Source: Fibrobacter succinogenes (GTDB taxonomy: Bacteria; Fibrobacterota; Fibrobacteria; Fibrobacterales; Fibrobacteraceae). Taken from it: a DNA stretch of 64,000 nucleotides. The stretch is taken from positions 46,520 to 110,519 of the forward strand of contig CADCGB010000017.1 of the NCBI GenBank assembly GCA_902800815.1, read 5' to 3'. Within the stretch, counting starts at the first letter, position 1. Each line of letters opens with the position of its first letter. The notes under the pieces are model-generated. The model was not told where the DNA came from. It saw only the letters and a program-made list of their open reading frames with translations, and ran no database searches. A program made the position numbers and the translations under genes. Below, piece by piece: positions 12,095 through 16,800 of the stretch.

Positions 12095-13714
12095 TTACTT
12101 GAGGGTCGGCGTATCCCAGTCAATCCATTCAGACTTGCTCCACTTGATCTGTTCAGTGTTCTTGGTGTAGTCAATCTTACCGGTCTTTGCTTCGCCACCC
12201 AGCAGGAACTTGGTCATGAAGTCCTTGACCTCGTCAAACTGTCCGTTCGGGAGCGAGCAGTGGCTGTGGCCGCCTTCCTGGCTGTAAGTGTAGTTCTCGC
12301 TCACGCCGAGCGCATCGAACACTTCCTTCGAAGCCTGCCCGCAGTAATTGGAGGGCACCTCGCCCAACCATTCCTGGCCTGCGTTGTCAAGGATGAGGAG
12401 CGCACGCGGGGCAATCATGCTCACAAGCATGTGCTGGTCGAACGGGAGGGTGTTTTCCTTGCCGTCATAACCCTTGAAGGAACTGATCATCCACTTGCCT
12501 TCGGAGCCGGCACTGCTCAGGCCCTGCACAAACTGCTTACCCTTCTGCTTGTTGACCTGCGCACCGACGCGCCAGAGAGAAGCGCCACCCGAGCCGGATT
12601 CCTGCGGGATGGTGAGTGCGATACGCTCGTCGAACGCGCCGACAGCGAGCGTGCCCTTGCCCCAGCGGGAGCAACCCGTCATGGCGAGATGATGCACGTC
12701 GATACCCACCTCGGGCATCTTCTCGAGAGCGTCAATAATGCGGCTCACGCCCCAGGCCCACGCGATGATAGTGCCGTACTTGTCCGTATTGCCACCGTAG
12801 ATGTTGAAGAACATGCCACCACCGCTTTCGGGAGCGACGTCATCCGGATTGAACACAATCTTTGCGATATTGAGACCGTTGGTGGAGTTGCCGAGGCTTC
12901 CGCAACCCCCGCCCATCATGCCGCCGCCAAACCCGATGAGGGCCGGTTTCGGCTTGTCCTTGGTACCCGCATCGCTCACCTTCACAGAGAACTTGCCGGT
13001 CTTGCCCTTGTCGGTCACGTTGATGGTGAGCGTCCCACCGGAGTAGGAGCCCTCGACCTTCTCGGGATTGCGCGGCTTCTCGCCGAACATGAGTTTTTCG
13101 TACATCGCGCCGATTTCTTCGCGGCGGCACTTCCACTCCGCTGCCGTAGAAATGCGCTTGCCGTCAAGACCCATGAACGGGTCGGGCAACTTGGAATTGT
13201 TCACGCTCTTCGGAATGTCGCCAATCTGGCATTCGCTGCGGTGGTCTTCCACGAAGTCGTTTGCGGGTGTCGGCGGTACAACCACGACGCTCGAGCTGGA
13301 AACGGGCGGCACATCGACAGAGCTGCTGGAAGTGTGATGACGATGCGAACTGCTCGATGCATCAGGCGAAACCAAATCACTGCTGCTGGATACGCAAGCC
13401 CACGGCGTTTGCGGGCCGCACGCAACCTCTGCTTCGCTACTGCTCGATTCACCCACTTCTACCTCGTGACCCGCTTCAAGCGGATCAGGGCGTTCAACCG
13501 AATACACCGTCAAGGACGAAGAACTGCTCCCCCCCTGTGCAGCAAGGATGGAATCTTCCATGGCCTTGTTTGCGGAGTCCGCGTTGAATTCCCCATATTG
13601 ATCGATGAGGCACTGTTCGGTGACACATGCTGTGGTAGAATTGTTGTCTTCTCCACAAGCCCACAACCCGAAGGCAGCGACTGCCAACGGAAATATATAT
13701 TTCCTTTTATTCAT
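12095..13714 (-). CDS. CE15 glucuronoyl esterase, lipoprotein-anchored
   Basis: AWAWGVSRIIDALE, nucleophile motif GCSRWGKG, QESGSGG, PFDQHML, GGHSHC; lipobox LWAC from ATG 13714. Confidence 0.92.
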   Translation of the reverse strand: MNKRKYIFPLAVAAFGLWACGEDNNSTTACVTEQCLIDQYGEFNADSANKAMEDSILAAQGGSSSSSLTVYSVERPDPLEAGHEVEVGESSSSEAEVACGPQTPWACVSSSSDLVSPDASSSSHRHHTSSSSVDVPPVSSSSVVVVPPTPANDFVEDHRSECQIGDIPKSVNNSKLPDPFMGLDGKRISTAAEWKCRREEIGAMYEKLMFGEKPRNPEKVEGSYSGGTLTINVTDKGKTGKFSVKVSDAGTKDKPKPALIGFGGGMMGGGCGSLGNSTNGLNIAKIVFNPDDVAPESGGGMFFNIYGGNTDKYGTIIAWAWGVSRIIDALEKMPEVGIDVHHLAMTGCSRWGKGTLAVGAFDERIALTIPQESGSGGASLWRVGAQVNKQKGKQFVQGLSSAGSEGKWMISSFKGYDGKENTLPFDQHMLVSMIAPRALLILDNAGQEWLGEVPSNYCGQASKEVFDALGVSENYTYSQEGGHSHCSLPNGQFDEVKDFMTKFLLGGEAKTGKIDYTKNTEQIKWSKSEWIDWDTPTLK

Positions 13715-13928
13715 AACCAACCCCATGTTCAAGGCCGGGAATTCGACCTTTCCGGGTATTTTTAAAGTATAAAAAAGAGGAACTAAAAGTACCGATTTCG
13801 GTAGAAAAACGTTGTTCGCACTTACAACGTTGCCAAAATGTAAATAAACGCCCTTTACAAGCAAAAAAAGACGTTATAAAGCCGAGCGCCAAGTCTCTGA
13901 AAGTTTACGTTGTCGTAAATTAAAACAA

Positions 13929-13978: not shown

Positions 13979-14074
13979 TTTTTCTTTTTTTTCAAAAAAA
14001 ATGTCCATTACCTGCAATTATACCGGTCAGACCAAACAAATAAAAGATATATTTCAATTATGAAAGGAGGAAAC

Positions 14075-15025
14075 ATGCTTTACAAACATTGGAAAAAAAT
14101 TGCTCTTTCGCTGACCGCATTCTTCTGGTCGGCTTGTGAAGACTCCGTATCCGAGGCAGATTGCCTATATGGCCCGCCAGAATACTACGGATTAAGCAGT
14201 CCCAAGGAACCCCAGCCGGAAAGTTCCAGCGAGGCGACCGGTAACGAAACGAGCTCCAGTTCCGAGGCGACCAAGCCCGAAAATTCAAGCAGCAGCGGAT
14301 TCCAACCCATGCCACTGTACGGGGTCTCCAGCGATCTTGTGACCTGCCTCCAGAAAGATGATTCAACGTTTAGATGTGTTGACGGGGCCACCTGTACGAG
14401 AAAGACAGAGTATACCTGGAAATCCCCCTCCTGCCATGAATCCGAACAAGATGGCGAAATCGTATCCATCTGCCCGGATTATGGCATTATGCAAGTTCTT
14501 GAAACCACCTACGAATGTGATGGCAAGGTGTACAACGAAGCCGAATTTCGCGACCGCTATCAAACGATGAGCATCGTGAACCCTCCCGAGCAAGGTTCAT
14601 CTAGTTCCGGCGACGTCACATGCACACCCACGGATTCCAGCGTTGCGTATTTTGCTCAGGATTACAGCGCAGACACCCAGAAGATGTGGAAAGAGGAAGC
14701 GGCCAAGCACGATGCCGTAGCCAAGATAGACTCCATCAAGCAGACCTTGACAGAAACGCCTACGTGCCTTGAAAACCTGCGCATGGAACTCGACATGTTC
14801 ATGGCCCTTTACGGCGCCCCGACCATCATCAATAACGCGGTAGAAACCTGCAGCAATGGAACCACCAGGCCCAGCGAAGAATACGCCAAGTTCCTTAAAA
14901 TGCAGGAAGAGTGGGAAGCGAACAAGTCTGCCCTGGACGAAGAACTCAAGAAGGTCTACGAAGACAAGATGAAGGAAATCGAGGAACGGATCAACAAGTG
15001 TCTTTCCGGCGAAACTGACAAGTAA
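14075..15025 (+). CDS. Cys-rich lipoprotein with five YG motifs (radical SAM-associated lipoprotein 1)
   Basis: GGAGG RBS; MLYKHWKKIALSLTAFFWSAC; motifs CLYGPP, EYYGL, MPLYGV, CPDYGI, MALYGAP. Confidence 0.85.
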   Translation: MLYKHWKKIALSLTAFFWSACEDSVSEADCLYGPPEYYGLSSPKEPQPESSSEATGNETSSSSEATKPENSSSSGFQPMPLYGVSSDLVTCLQKDDSTFRCVDGATCTRKTEYTWKSPSCHESEQDGEIVSICPDYGIMQVLETTYECDGKVYNEAEFRDRYQTMSIVNPPEQGSSSSGDVTCTPTDSSVAYFAQDYSADTQKMWKEEAAKHDAVAKIDSIKQTLTETPTCLENLRMELDMFMALYGAPTIINNAVETCSNGTTRPSEEYAKFLKMQEEWEANKSALDEELKKVYEDKMKEIEERINKCLSGETDK

Positions 15026-15027
15026 TT

Positions 15028-15348
15028 ATGTTCAAGAAACATTGGAAAAAAATCCTATTGAGCCTGTGCGCCATGCTCTGGAGCGGCTGCAGCGACGATT
15101 CGGTACCCCTTTACGGAACCCCGCAGGTCGCTTGTGAATTAGACCACATGTGGAGTGACGAGTGCGGCACCACATCCAATATCGTATGCACGGACACCTA
15201 CTATTGTAAAGACAAAGTTGTCTGCTTCAAGCAATATGAAGGGAAAAACGCGACCTTTGACTGTCGCGATGAACTGGGCAACAAGACAACCTATACCGAA
15301 GACGAATTCAACTCATTATACTATGTTGAAAGCGAACGCATTCACTAA
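15028..15348 (+). CDS. Cys-rich lipoprotein 2 (radical SAM-associated)
   Basis: MFKKHWKKILLSLCAMLWSGC; VPLYGTP seven residues after the lipid Cys; six further Cys. Confidence 0.85.
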   Translation: MFKKHWKKILLSLCAMLWSGCSDDSVPLYGTPQVACELDHMWSDECGTTSNIVCTDTYYCKDKVVCFKQYEGKNATFDCRDELGNKTTYTEDEFNSLYYVESERIH

Positions 15349-15364
15349 CTTTAGACGAGGAAAA

Positions 15365-15727
15365 ATGTTCTACAAGCATTGGAAAAAAATTGCACTGGCT
15401 TTTACCGCCCTGTTCTGGGCCGGATGCGGCGATGATTCGTCAAGCGACAGCAAGGAGCTGGTTGCCTGCGACTTGCAGCAAATGTGTCCCGAATACGGCG
15501 TCGCCGGTTATTCTTGCGATGACGGCTTTTACGGAGACGATAACGGTCAGAACTGTACCTTCATTCCAGCACCAACATGTTCCAGATATTATCAATGCGA
15601 AGACAATGTGACTTGTTGGGCTAATGAAGGTGATACCGTTCTAAATTGCTCCGACAAGCAAGACAAAGATTTTTCAATCAATGAAAATGATTTTAATTCA
15701 AAATATTACGTAAAGGAAAACGAATGA
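15365..15727 (+). CDS. Cys-rich lipoprotein 3 (radical SAM-associated)
   Basis: MFYKHWKKIALAFTALFWAGC from ATG 15365; CPEYGV, GFYGD; eight further Cys; stop overlaps the radical SAM start (ATGA). Confidence 0.85.
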   Translation: MFYKHWKKIALAFTALFWAGCGDDSSSDSKELVACDLQQMCPEYGVAGYSCDDGFYGDDNGQNCTFIPAPTCSRYYQCEDNVTCWANEGDTVLNCSDKQDKDFSINENDFNSKYYVKENE

Positions 15728-16800
15728 AGCTCTCTCTTAAAAAGAAACTCGCTCTCGAAGCTTATCGCCTTTACCGTCACAACGAAATCAAGGCGCACCC
15801 TCTTACCTACTTTTTCTGGGAATGCACGTTGCGCTGCAACCTGCACTGCCTGCACTGCGGTAGCGACTGCGTGAAGGACGCCATTCCGGACATGCCCCGC
15901 GAAGACTTCATGGGCGTGCTAGACAAATTGGCCCCGCATATCGACCCGAAGCACTTTATCGTGGTAATTACCGGCGGCGAGCCGTTGATGCGCGCCGACC
16001 TCGAGGAATGTGGCCAGGAAATCAAGAAGCGCGGCTACCCGTGGGGCATGGTCACGAATGGCCTTGCAATGACGCCCGAACGCTACACCAGGCTGCTGAA
16101 CGCCGGGCTCCGCTCGCTCACCATCAGTCTCGACGGCCTGCAGGAAAGCCACAACCACTTCCGCGGTGACCCGCATAGTTTTGAACGTGCTCTCCGTGCC
16201 ATCGACATGGCAGCCCATACGCAGGGCCTCACCTTCGACGTGATGACGTGCGTGAACCGCCAGAACCTGAAGGAACTCCCGAAAATTCTCGATATGCTCC
16301 TGAAAATCGGCGTGAAGCGCTGGCGCATCGCGACCGTGTTCCCGAAGGGCCGTGCCAAGGACAACCCGCTATTCCAGCTCACGAACCAGGAATTCCGCCA
16401 GGTGTTCGACTTCATCCGCGAAGTGAAGAAGATGAACGTCATCAACGTGAACTACGGCTGCGAAGGGTTTCTCGGGAGCTACGAGAAGGACGCCCGCAAC
16501 TACCCGTTCTTCTGCCGTGCCGGCGTGAACGTGAGTTCCGTGCTCTGCGACGGCAGCATCTCCGCCTGCCCAAGCCTGCGCGGCGACTACATACAAGGTA
16601 ACATCTACAAGGATGACCTGTGGGACGTGTGGCAGCACCGCTACCAGGTGATGCGCGACCGCAACTGGGCAAAAATCGGCGACTGCAAGACCTGCAAGTA
16701 CTGGCGCTACTGCGAAGGCTCCAGTTTGCACCTCAGGGACGAGAAAACGAAGGAACTGGCATATTGCCACGTGCAGCGCCTCGAAGACGCTGGCGCATAA
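15724..16800 (+). CDS. Radical SAM enzyme with SPASM domain (rSAM/lipoprotein system type)
   Basis: FWECTLRCNLHCLHCGSDC (CxxxCxxC), ITGGEPL, FCRAG...DGSISACP, CKTCKYWRYCEG...YC. Confidence 0.93.
   Translation: MKLSLKKKLALEAYRLYRHNEIKAHPLTYFFWECTLRCNLHCLHCGSDCVKDAIPDMPREDFMGVLDKLAPHIDPKHFIVVITGGEPLMRADLEECGQEIKKRGYPWGMVTNGLAMTPERYTRLLNAGLRSLTISLDGLQESHNHFRGDPHSFERALRAIDMAAHTQGLTFDVMTCVNRQNLKELPKILDMLLKIGVKRWRIATVFPKGRAKDNPLFQLTNQEFRQVFDFIREVKKMNVINVNYGCEGFLGSYEKDARNYPFFCRAGVNVSSVLCDGSISACPSLRGDYIQGNIYKDDLWDVWQHRYQVMRDRNWAKIGDCKTCKYWRYCEGSSLHLRDEKTKELAYCHVQRLEDAGA

Follow-up and report, generated by a model that had tools for sequence, protein, structure and literature searches.

Tyramine spliceases (TIGR04103 / IPR026482) comprise PlpX/PcpX together with PlpY (type I) and the binary RhaX/RasX/RcsX systems (type II). 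They act at XYG sites, remove 135.06 Da, and accept protein substrates (PMC11414181, PMC11626197, PMC10533398, PMC9811515). Splicease types II and later are activated by a leader helix and hence lack a separate RRE (PMC11414181, PMC11626197, PMC10533398, PMC9811515). At the characterised sites, the residue before Tyr is Met or Leu, and a DYG site in RcsA is not spliced (PMC11626197). Bona fide TIGR04103 loci encode Nif11 precursors with the cores IQPLYGVIWPP and AMYGVVIS, while relatives of TIGR04103 adjoin proteins with 'LTLSAC-YG[TVA]PP' or four copies of QP[KM]YGLP. A second system, TIGR04133/TIGR04134, consists of NCBIfam hypothetical equivalogs (JGI: 'radical SAM enzyme (rSAM/lipoprotein system)'). 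TIGR04133 contains more than 7,700 sequence clusters from Bacteroidota, Fibrobacterota, Marinimicrobia, and other phyla, including an enzyme in Bacteroides thetaiotaomicron, and no chemistry for its members was found in the literature searched.

The window is a stretch of 64,000 nucleotides from Fibrobacter succinogenes, a rumen bacterium, in which four tightly packed ORFs occupy positions 14075–16800. In gene order, they are lipoA (14075–15025, a 316-aa pre-lipoprotein), lipoB (15028–15348, a 106-aa pre-lipoprotein with a Cys-rich domain), lipoC (15365–15727, a 120-aa pre-lipoprotein), and the rSAM gene (15724–16800, a 358-aa radical SAM/SPASM enzyme by HMM and Pfam). lipoA and lipoB are separated by 2 bp and lipoB and lipoC by 16 bp, and an ATGA overlap couples translation of the enzyme to that of lipoC; the four-gene operon proposed in the preliminary description is thus confirmed, with all ORFs, and all features given below, on the + strand. 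The lipoA start is placed at 14075 rather than 14060 because a Shine-Dalgarno GGAGG, read from the sequence at 14066–14070, sits 5 nt before this ATG. The locus is flanked by genes for Hsp33, a HAD hydrolase, a divergently transcribed glucuronoyl esterase lipoprotein, and RelA/SpoT. Inspection of the neighbouring genes revealed no protease or transporter gene near the locus and, as described earlier, no PqqD/RRE gene.

The enzyme clearly belongs to TIGR04133, the catalogued "rSAM/lipoprotein" family, matching profile positions 1–350 of 350 with 625.5 bits (E = 2e-188; cut-off 425); a second TIGR04133 copy in the genome scores 599.9 bits. Pfam recognises both the Radical_SAM (PF04055, 78.6 bits) and SPASM (PF13186, 32.2 bits) domains, in agreement with the initial reading of a CxxxCxxC motif and a SPASM domain. 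The radical SAM cluster motif, C38-x3-C42-x2-C45 (15835–15858), lies inside the sequence Y-x-x-W-E-x-T-L-R-C-N-L-x-C-x-H-C-G-S, which is common to the PlpX clade. The SPASM region, placed by Pfam and alignment at 16513–16767, contains C264, G277, C282, C321, C324, C330, and C348. Throughout TIGR04133, the SPASM CX2CX5CX3C pattern lacks its fourth Cys, which the PlpX clade keeps, and TIGR04133 has four other invariant Cys residues. Because of this different Cys pattern, the auxiliary-cluster ligation of TIGR04133, and possibly its chemistry, may differ from that of the PlpX clade.

The best non-self HMM match of the enzyme is TIGR04103, and reciprocally, TIGR04133 ranks third to fifth among the HMM matches of PlpX-clade proteins. 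However, the TIGR04103 score is 140.8 bits against a cut-off of 725 and against 805–862 bits for true members, and it barely exceeds the scores for AhbD (137.5) and TIGR04053 (138.6). In a maximum-likelihood tree from which several SPASM families (PqqE, MftC, and sactisynthases) were left out, TIGR04133 and the TIGR04103 clade group together (98/98 support) to the exclusion of NirJ2, anSME, ScmE, twitch, and W-maturase-like SPASM enzymes. The TIGR04133 stem in this tree is a long branch of 2.2 substitutions per site, and the AU test did not reject a placement with NirJ2-like enzymes (p = 0.073). Furthermore, 13 positions (Y29, W32, L36, G46, S47, W200, G248, G267, P283, L285, G319, H336, and H349) are conserved in both the TIGR04133 and PlpX clades and rare in outgroups. 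A phylogenetic link to the spliceases is therefore favoured by the sequences but not statistically decisive. Of the checks suggested earlier, the phylogeny placed the enzyme beside PlpX and not beside the NirJ/AhbD-type, anSME, or ScmE families, whereas the splicease family search left it far below the family cut-off.

All three lipoproteins start with a lipobox-like signal peptide whose last residues read W-[SA]-[AG]-C21. In lipoA, the family-specific signal peptide, MLYKHWKKIALSLTAFFWSAC (14075–14137), terminates at the lipobox Cys21 and is, from alignments and a genome search, the proposed leader element; residues 6–19 are modelled as a helix by AF2. In the Fibrobacter family alignments, K4, H5, W6, W18, and C21 are invariant, and the KHWKK...FWxxC pattern as a whole is near-invariant. 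Only four KHWKK-type lipoprotein N-termini exist genome-wide, all directly upstream of TIGR04133 genes: three belong to this locus, and the fourth, a 239-aa protein with six YG motifs in APKYGVP-type repeats, precedes the second TIGR04133 gene on contig C1. Behind the signal peptide (residues 1–20) and the lipid Cys21, lipoA contains a Ser-rich disordered linker (27–86), a Cys-rich beta domain (89–162), and a helical domain (180–311; AF2 model, pLDDT 70.6), representing a fusion of two modules encoded separately in other Fibrobacter loci. Residues 30–120 of lipoC form a confident beta-rich disulfide domain (AF2 pLDDT 78.9) for which Foldseek returned no PDB fold match (best E = 0.09). The preliminary description had named the TIGR04133/TIGR04134 pair, which is correct for the enzyme but not for the lipoproteins: none of the three matches the TIGR04134 HMM even at E <= 10 (cut-off 39.8 bits). 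Across the genome, the TIGR04134 HMM scores no higher than 18 bits, at an unrelated locus, against 98.8 bits for the Paludibacter partner used as a positive control. Judged by their sequences, lipoA, lipoB, and lipoC are members of an unannotated, Fibrobacter-only family without a Pfam match.

The three Cys-rich lipoproteins contain eight YG dipeptides, as first counted, compared with a mean of 1.53 expected; only 4 of 200,000 composition-preserving shuffles reached eight (p about 2e-5). In lipoA, Y32-G33 (CLYGPP, 14168–14173) lies in the disordered linker (pLDDT <50) as a candidate modification site, with G33 at least 90% conserved, and the linker-type Y82-G83 (MPLYGV, 14318–14323) recurs in homologues as [IV]MP[LA]YGV. 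Y136-G137 (ICPDYGI, 14480–14485) is located in a lower-confidence loop of the Cys-rich module, where ICP[DE]YG[VI] is conserved across the module family. Y246-G247 (MALYGAP, 14810–14815) occupies a loop of the helical domain between H230–240 and E250–253, where the pLDDT dips to 67, and both residues are invariant in 22 sequences. In lipoB, Y29-G30 (VPLYGTP, 15112–15117) falls in the Tyr column that is invariant across the family, and in the alignment of lipoC, Y44-G45 (CPEYGV, 15494–15499) has an invariant Tyr and a near-invariant Gly. These six sites lie in invariant or near-invariant YG columns, and the conserved YG sites sit in disordered linkers or lower-confidence loops of the AF2 models. 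Of the eight YG sites listed in the original proposal, the other two are less widely conserved: lipoA Y38-G39 (EYYG, 14186–14191) persists in only some close relatives, and lipoC Y56-G57 (GFYGDD, 15530–15535) is confined to close relatives, so that both are probably incidental. The first YG follows Cys21 by 8 residues in lipoB, 11 in lipoA, and 23 in lipoC, and the locus shows the TIGR04134-type layout, in which x-Y-G-[VTS]-P comes no more than about 10 residues after the lipobox.

Of the 51 Fibrobacter genomes sampled, 50 contain the system, in one to three copies each, with one to five lipoproteins of variable domain make-up per locus. At 80 Fibrobacter loci, 112 lipoproteins of this kind were compared, and no dipeptide is more enriched in them than YG (294 observed vs 62 expected); 108 carry at least one, in the context [PA]-[LKED]-Y-G-[VIA]-P, and four carry none. 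Similar arrangements were observed at 78 distant TIGR04133 loci from Bacteroidota, Marinimicrobia, Chitinivibrionales and other Fibrobacterota, and Spirochaetes. At 71 of these, a same-strand upstream ORF encodes a lipobox followed by YG, against a background of 0.6% of ORFs genome-wide for the search pattern, and lipobox then x-Y-G-[VT]-P is the sole feature common to these upstream genes. The seven misses include four with <500 nt of upstream sequence and two with a YG ORF whose N-terminus is cut or damaged. In the distant partners, YG lies a median of 9 residues past the Cys in the consensus P-x-A-[EM]-Y-G-[VTS]-P, and Tyr is most often preceded by Glu in Bacteroidota (62%). The partner at one locus (L160) has YA instead of YG at the canonical position, and the N-region motif is present in only 42 of 98 cross-phylum partners. 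Some partners are mini-lipoproteins of 42–80 aa, in which conservation of the mature part is limited to ...IAMYGVRPT or PEYGxxPLYGV; because they conserve little besides the YG motif, the motif is independent of any folded domain. Conservation of the YG columns in orthologous lipoproteins, on which the earlier proposal had staked itself, is thus observed within the genus and also across phyla. At the level of sequence, the motif shape is alike in TIGR04133 partners and TIGR04103 precursor cores.

The best explanation of these features, although a tentative one falling a little short of an even chance, is that the locus represents the Fibrobacter form of the TIGR04133 system, in which the YG lipoproteins are edited by a splicease reaction. 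Its parts differ in strength. The conserved pairing of genes and motif makes the lipoproteins the probable substrates of the enzyme; tyramine excision, by analogy with the spliceases, is a cautious prediction for the reaction; and a leader role of the lipoprotein signal peptide is somewhat more doubtful still. In such a mechanism, the cytoplasmic, oxygen-sensitive rSAM/SPASM enzyme would bind freshly made, still unfolded pre-lipoproteins, probably via the conserved signal peptide (M-x-Y-K-H-W-K-K ... F-W-x-x-C), which would double as a RiPP-like leader, and local recognition of [A/V/M]-P-[L/E/D]-Y-G-[V/A/T/I]-P would probably contribute. The signal-peptide helix could simultaneously act as a splicease-activating helix, a role played in spliceases by the RRE-like Y protein or the substrate leader. 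The Tyr at each conserved x-Y-G site would be modified by radical chemistry, most likely by the splicease reaction. In that case, x-Tyr-Gly would lose the equivalent of tyramine (C8H9NO, -135.07 Da), and the backbone would retain an electrophilic alpha-keto-beta-amino acid. Sec export, lipidation at Cys21, and disulfide folding in the envelope would follow, and the downstream role might be that of a tethered protease trap or a protease-resistant linker.

The same enzyme could instead act on the same substrates and the same Tyr-Gly target by a different radical reaction, such as a Tyr-centred cross-link, a three-residue cyclophane (Tyr to +2 Val/Thr/Ala), beta-hydroxylation, epimerisation, or Calpha-Cbeta scission without re-ligation. 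This explanation accounts equally well for the whole of the evidence on substrates and sites, SPASM enzymes acting on aromatic residues are chemically diverse, and PqqE, MftC, and cyclophane-forming families are among the weaker HMM matches. The SPASM Cys ligands unlike those of the PlpX clade and the score far under the TIGR04103 cut-off point the same way, as does the +2/+3 pair ([VT]-P), which is conserved as well as the -1 position, as expected if downstream residues participate. However, by the tree and the signature residues, the closest enzymes are spliceases and not cyclophane, PqqE, or MftC enzymes, the motif shape fits splicease cores, and the +1 Gly is near-invariant, as XYG splicing requires; a different reaction is judged rather unlikely.

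It is more improbable that the enzyme matures another protein or a small molecule, the lipoproteins being partners (a carrier or an anchor) or merely co-regulated, and YG-x-P a structural or sorting element opening the mature lipoprotein. In canonical TIGR04134 proteins, the motif (EYGTPxADFxVKG) directly abuts a CarboxypepD_reg-like beta-sandwich, of which it could be the first strand, so that part of its conservation there could be structural. AhbD/NirJ-type cofactor enzymes, moreover, score almost like TIGR04103, and an affinity to NirJ2 is compatible with the AU test. Against this, the motif is kept without a domain in the smallest partners and in Ser-rich linkers, with up to 5–8 repeats per protein, and YG within 40 residues of the Cys is seen in just 6.9% of the genome's generic lipoprotein-like N-termini. 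The translational coupling and the confinement of the signal peptide to rSAM-linked genes also tie enzyme and lipoproteins together, and no other conserved neighbour gene was found beside TIGR04133 across phyla.

Formation of thioether (sactionine or ranthionine-type) or other Cys cross-links in the Cys-rich domains is highly improbable. The lipoproteins contain many Cys residues (12 in lipoA, 8 in lipoB, and 9 in lipoC), and SCIFF/CteB, PapB, QhpD, and sactisynthases, which make Cys thioethers, appear as weak HMM matches. However, Cys is not the conserved target, because most TIGR04133 partners (for example, those of 70–76 aa and of 75 aa) hold only the lipobox Cys; the beta-rich fold and the reported even Cys counts fit ordinary periplasmic disulfides, and the thioether-forming families are distant in the tree. 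Coincidence of YG enrichment and gene adjacency in fast-evolving, Ser-rich, low-complexity surface proteins, whose number and domains vary between loci and in which two of the eight YG sites lack conservation, is effectively refuted by the comparative data, namely the shuffling result, the rank of YG as top enriched dipeptide of the family, the pairing at the distant loci above background, and the rSAM linkage of every KHWKK lipoprotein in the genome.

More broadly, and with the same caution as for the leader role, TIGR04133 might constitute a large unrecognised branch of tyramine spliceases whose natural substrates are Sec-exported lipoproteins, with the signal peptide doubling as leader or activating helix and with an expansion in Fibrobacter into arrays of multi-site substrates. 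If this were true, a function would be assigned to a large orphan radical SAM family, a signal peptide would be shown to serve as a maturase recognition element, and backbone splicing would rank among the mainstream ways in which gut and rumen anaerobes modify their proteins. Ribosomal backbone editing (beta-amino acid, ketoamide), otherwise coming from a few cyanobacterial and gammaproteobacterial peptides, would then reach the envelope proteome of dominant gut and rumen bacteria, whose surface tethers might become protease-resistant or protease-trapping. Such compact (about 350 aa), RRE-free enzymes with short tags would also serve protein engineering. Even with another chemistry, the family-wide Tyr-Gly target tells where to look.

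Compared with TIGR04133/TIGR04134, the locus shares a full-length TIGR04133 enzyme directly downstream of lipoprotein genes and a partner layout of lipobox then x-Y-G-x-P, as in the Paludibacter, Proteiniphilum, and Marinimicrobia loci. However, the Fibrobacter partners, besides failing to match the TIGR04134 HMM, lack the CarboxypepD_reg-like domain and possess the invariant KHWKK signal peptide, Ser-rich linkers, a novel Cys-rich beta domain, and a helical domain; simultaneously, three tandem candidate substrate genes plus a second locus are present, with up to five YG per protein. With the tyramine spliceases, whose PlpX clade is the nearest tree neighbour of TIGR04133, the system shares an rSAM + SPASM enzyme, a co-encoded ribosomal product bearing x-Y-G sites, the context [P/A]-[L/M]-Y-G-[V/I/L], and, as in type II and later spliceases (PMC11414181, PMC11626197), the lack of a separate RRE. 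In contrast, the enzyme is about 60–70 residues shorter and without the fourth SPASM Cys, the candidate substrates are Sec/Lsp-type lipoproteins of 100–300 aa instead of Nif11/NHLP-leader peptides, no protease or exporter gene is included, and Glu, Asp, or Lys often precedes Tyr. anSME provides a precedent, being a cytoplasmic rSAM/SPASM enzyme that acts on a short motif of an unfolded protein before Sec export, but the family is distant, the target is Cys/Ser in C/S-x-P-x-R, and no dedicated substrate is co-encoded. The cyanobacterial TIGR04103-related rSAMs (about 445 bits; loci L312–L314 and L317), for which no characterisation was found, have Zn-ribbon/membrane-helix partners ending in '...LTLSAC-YG[TVA]PP', with the stop codon abutting the start of the splicease-like rSAM gene. 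The enzyme there belongs to the PlpX clade, and a cytoplasmic Zn-ribbon precedes the helix, but the order of hydrophobic helix, Cys, and YG-x-P is the same as in the TIGR04133 partners with 'FAACYGT' and 'TSCEYGAP'.

The three lipoprotein genes and the radical SAM gene are arranged head to tail on the forward strand, with lipoA (14075-15025, 316 aa) separated by 2 bp from lipoB (15028-15348, 106 aa), a 16-bp gap between lipoB and lipoC (15365-15727, 120 aa), and an ATGA overlap between lipoC and rSAM (15724-16800, 358 aa), confirming both the four-gene operon of three Cys-rich lipoproteins and a radical SAM/SPASM enzyme and the spacings claimed in the preliminary description. A GGAGG sequence is located 5 nt 5' of the lipoA ATG at 14075, and promoter and terminator scans within the operon gave nothing usable. 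The N-termini of the three lipoproteins consist of M-[LF]-[YK]-K-H-W-K-K, a hydrophobic stretch, and W-[SA]-[AG]-C21, forming a predicted lipoprotein-type signal peptide. The flanking genes encode Hsp33, a HAD hydrolase, a divergent glucuronoyl esterase lipoprotein, and RelA/SpoT; RRE/PqqD, protease, and exporter genes are absent among the genes near the operon, and the annotation bears out the earlier remark that no PqqD/RRE gene lies nearby. The divergent neighbor (12095-13864, minus strand), combining a long linker rich in Ser with a glucuronoyl esterase domain (CE15, PF22244, 235.6 bits), is an ordinary Fibrobacter fibre-degrading enzyme lacking the KHWKK signal. An acid-tolerance RNA-seq paper on F. 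succinogenes mentions rSAM genes, not specifically the operon at 14075-16800.

The rSAM protein contains a C38-x3-C42-x2-C45 motif, matches the Radical_SAM and SPASM models of Pfam, and scores 625.5 bits on TIGR04133 (cut-off 425), the enzyme family of the rSAM/lipoprotein system; the next-best models are far lower and closely spaced (TIGR04103, the PlpX-type 'nif11-class maturase 3', 140.8 bits; TIGR04053, 138.6 bits; AhbD, 137.5 bits). Of the TIGR04133/TIGR04134 pair named in the preliminary description, the enzyme half stands, whereas the lipoprotein half does not: at thresholds as loose as E = 10, lipoA, lipoB, and lipoC hit nothing in Pfam or NCBIfam, TIGR04134 included, and the positive control for TIGR04134, a partner from Paludibacter, reaches 98.8 bits. 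Hence, the three proteins cannot be assigned to TIGR04134. TIGR04133 comprises more than 7,700 protein clusters at E <= 1e-40, its members carry the JGI label 'radical SAM enzyme (rSAM/lipoprotein system)', and the pair of genes has already been catalogued bioinformatically as a family, so the enzyme as such is no novelty. Its closest relatives, 98% identical, belong to rumen and hindgut Fibrobacter MAGs, and members from Paludibacter, Marinimicrobia, and other phyla still share 56-60% identity. Within the Fibrobacterota sample, 84 of 201 genomes contain TIGR04133 above the cut-off, including 50 of the 51 sampled Fibrobacter genomes with one to three copies each; among 14 control genomes, only Bacteroides thetaiotaomicron does, and its laboratory strain VPI-5482 has TIGR04134 above the cut-off too. 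A PDB sequence search with rSAM retrieved distant radical SAM enzymes only (BlsE, SkfB, and PqqE). A third, divergent TIGR04133-like paralogue of about 275 bits, below the cut-off, exists in some Fibrobacter genomes (G589:C84:7438-8487, G587:C26:4034-5083, G585:C7:68811-69854, and G480:C17:43271-44317) and is absent from the window's genome.

The lipoproteins constitute a Fibrobacter family of their own. The lipoB/lipoC profile recovers about 400 clusters, almost none with a Pfam domain, and the named ones are all 'hypothetical protein [Fibrobacter sp.]'. In the AF2 models, lipoC forms a confident beta-rich domain (residues 30-120, pLDDT 83-95), and lipoA is composed of a signal helix, a disordered Ser-rich linker (residues 27-86), a Cys-rich beta domain (residues 89-162), and a well-predicted helical domain (residues 180-311); Foldseek found nothing significant for these models in the PDB (best E 0.09 for lipoC and 0.39 for lipoA, TM below 0.3). 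In closely related loci, the Cys-rich and helical modules of lipoA are encoded by two neighboring lipoprotein genes (for example, L013:2192-2851 and L013:2872-3597); lipoA seems to be a fusion of such a pair. Across Fibrobacter loci, the lipoprotein genes number from one to five while the enzymes remain 93-98% identical, which suggests that the substrate repertoire turns over rapidly around a near-constant enzyme.

All eight Tyr-Gly (YG) dipeptides originally counted in lipoA, lipoB, and lipoC are present; the chance expectation is a mean of 1.53, and eight were reached in 4 of 200,000 composition-preserving shuffles. Among 112 lipoproteins from 80 Fibrobacter loci, YG is the most enriched dipeptide (294 observed versus 62 expected), and 108 of them carry at least one, in the context [IA]-[CVA]-[PA]-[LKED]-Y-G-[VIA]-P. 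Throughout the lipoB/lipoC family, the column that holds the Tyr of CPEYG (in lipoB, of VPLYG) never varies, and the following Gly is conserved at 90% or more; in the lipoA family, Y246 and G247 are invariant, G33 is nearly so, Y82 lies in a recurrent MP[LA]YGV, and Y136 in a recurrent ICP[DE]YG[VI]. Six of the eight sites are conserved, all located where the AF2 models show disordered linkers or loops of lower confidence, and the other two, lipoA Y38 and lipoC Y56, retained in some close relatives only, are incidental on these alignments.

The motif extends well beyond Fibrobacter. Of 78 distant TIGR04133 loci, 71 have, upstream and on the same strand, an ORF in which YG follows a lipobox, a pattern with a background of 0.6% of ORFs generally. 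Among the seven that do not, four offer less than 500 nt upstream, and in another two a YG ORF is present but its N-terminus is truncated or damaged. Conservation of YG in orthologous lipoproteins, on which the preliminary description had staked its proposal, thus holds both in the Fibrobacter alignments and at the distant loci. The cross-phylum consensus is P-x-A-[EM]-Y-G-[VTS]-P-x-A-[DE]-[FY], at a median of nine residues from the lipid Cys. Many partners are mini-lipoproteins of 42-80 aa whose sole conserved mature segment is a C-terminal ...IAMYGVRPT or PEYGxxPLYGV, and in one Fibrobacterales partner, a Ser-rich chain contains [AV]P[VEL]YG[VI]P five times. YG as a mere first strand of a CarboxypepD_reg-like beta-sandwich, as in canonical TIGR04134, fails as a full explanation because domain-less partners retain the motif. 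In two horse-faeces Bacteroidales loci (L160 and L164), the partner reads AVAMYATPYGDY against the family consensus A-E-Y-G-T-P-Y-A-D-F; the canonical Gly is replaced by Ala and a YG occurs four residues further on, a natural variant useful for defining site requirements.

The signal peptide provides a second tie to the enzyme. Searching the complete 3.15-Mb assembly for KHWKK-type N-termini gave exactly four proteins, three of them in the window and the fourth, on contig C1, directly upstream of the genome's second TIGR04133 gene; the KHWKK signal peptide is therefore limited to the rSAM-linked genes of this genome. The contig C1 lipoprotein (239 aa) contains six YG sites (APKYGVP, AAKYGVI, APKYGVM, CAKYGVV, DLYGCP, and PLYGI), three of them in near-identical [AI]APKYGV repeats within a Ser-rich linker. 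At this second locus (C1:165485-167281, outside the window), the enzyme gene (599.9 bits) is 83% identical to that of the window and is preceded by one lipoprotein gene; two or three loci of this kind occur in about one-third of the Fibrobacter genomes sampled. Signal peptides normally conserve physicochemical character only, and the invariance of K4, H5, W6, W18, and C21 in the alignments is, at the sequence level, unusual for one. Of 98 partners from other phyla, 42 carry a similar pattern in the N-region, [KR]-x-[FYW]-x-[KRQ]-[ILVM] (e.g., IKLFDKI and LKTYGKI), compared with 15 of 582 generic lipoprotein-like N-termini in the window's genome.

A maximum-likelihood tree of 57 rSAM-SPASM proteins, comprising 21 TIGR04133, 18 TIGR04103-clade, and 18 other sequences from eleven genomes (NirJ2, anSME, ScmE, twitch-domain, AhbD-like, and W-maturase-like, with PqqE, MftC, and sactisynthases left out), unites TIGR04133 with the TIGR04103 clade in one group (98/98 support) that contains none of the outgroups, on a long TIGR04133 stem; a topology constrained to place TIGR04133 with NirJ2-like enzymes survives the AU test (delta lnL 11.4, p = 0.073). 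Thirteen alignment positions are conserved in both clades and present in at most 25% of the outgroups, including Y-x-x-W-E-x-T-L-[RK]-C-N-L-x-C-x-H-C-G-S at the SAM cluster, W200, the SPASM C-P-S-L, and H336/H349. HMM ranks are roughly reciprocal: TIGR04103 is the best non-self match of the window's enzyme, and TIGR04133 is the third to fifth best match of PlpX-clade proteins, behind TIGR03913. TIGR04133 lacks the fourth Cys of SPASM CX2CX5CX3C, which the PlpX clade retains, and possesses four invariant Cys of its own (C34, C49, C176, and C246 in rSAM numbering); therefore, one auxiliary cluster may have unusual ligation. Given the tree and signature evidence, together with the AU result, the stem, the sampling, and the Cys differences, the enzyme is placed near the spliceases and outside the PlpX family as defined.

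We consider it probable that the lipoproteins are the substrates of the enzyme and are modified at YG. At the same site, a Tyr-centred radical reaction other than splicease-type tyramine excision is possible but doubtful. In the literature searched, no paper gives TIGR04133 a reaction or joins tyramine, radical SAM, and lipoprotein. That the enzyme does not act on the lipoA, lipoB, and lipoC proteins is unlikely. The formation of Cys thioethers in these proteins, which contain 12, 8, and 9 Cys, respectively, is very improbable and is rejected, since the lipobox Cys is the only one in most partners from other phyla. The YG enrichment and gene adjacency can hardly be a coincidence.

For modification at YG, an order of events can be proposed. 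Radical SAM enzymes require reduced Fe-S clusters and SAM and hence act in the cytoplasm, and lipoproteins pass the membrane unfolded via Sec; modification must therefore precede export, as anSME modify sulfatases ahead of theirs. The rSAM would thus modify pre-lipoproteins in the cytoplasm, with the exclusive, invariant signal peptide as the obvious candidate recognition element. That the first YG follows the Cys at a short and fairly constant interval is consistent with an enzyme held by the signal-peptide helix, and distal sites, up to residue 246 of lipoA, would need local motif recognition. Speculatively, the product may serve as a protease-resistant or protease-trapping tether in the protease-rich rumen, or as a reactive handle.

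Scott et al. 2022 (Chem 8:2659) mined rSAM-SPASM neighbors for YG and predicted 939 systems in 189 genera (PMC10849128, PMC10533398), among which TIGR04133 may already be present. New here are the Fibrobacter-specific substrate family with its exclusive signal peptide and multi-site, multi-gene arrays, the comparative evidence pointing to Tyr-Gly as a family-wide TIGR04133 target, and the tree and signature evidence for a probable link to spliceases.

PlpX belongs to IPR026482, equivalent to TIGR04103 (PMC11002830), and bona fide TIGR04103 genes of cyanobacterial genomes (805-862 bits) served as the reference set. For the small TIGR04103-like rSAM of L315 and L316, no obvious YG partner is located nearby. 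Just downstream of a TIGR04103-like rSAM of about 628 bits, below the cut-off, a protein of 184 aa contains QP[KM]YGLP four times (L310:3639-4193) and looks like a multi-site protein substrate. At four cyanobacterial loci, TIGR04103 relatives of about 445 bits, below the cut-off, are directly preceded, stop abutting start, by partners of 95-116 aa (L312:2059-2373, L313:1743-2075, L314:3422-3709 and L317:3467-3817, the last two on the minus strand), with an N-terminal CxxC...CxxC Zn-ribbon, a hydrophobic helix '...LTLSAC', YG[TVA]PP, and a Pro/Ser-rich tail. They look like a membrane-anchored or lipoprotein-like type of splicease substrate, and the helix ending in Cys followed by YG-x-P is a layout common to many TIGR04133 partners. 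Binary spliceases, which lack a Y protein, are activated by a leader helix (PMC11414181), a parallel to the role proposed here for the signal peptide, and local motif recognition has been demonstrated for PlpX splice tags (PMC10533398, PMC9811515). The Nif11-leader precursors adjoining the bona fide TIGR04103 genes have the cores IQPLYGVIWPP, AQPLYGVVIS, VQAMYGVVIS, and PILLYGVVPI, in agreement with the published splice sites MYG and LYG (PMC10533398, PMC11626197). Such PlpX-type cores, [P/A]-[L/M]-Y-G-[V/I], resemble MPLYGV, VPLYGT, and MALYGA of the window and IAMYGVRP of Bacteroidales.
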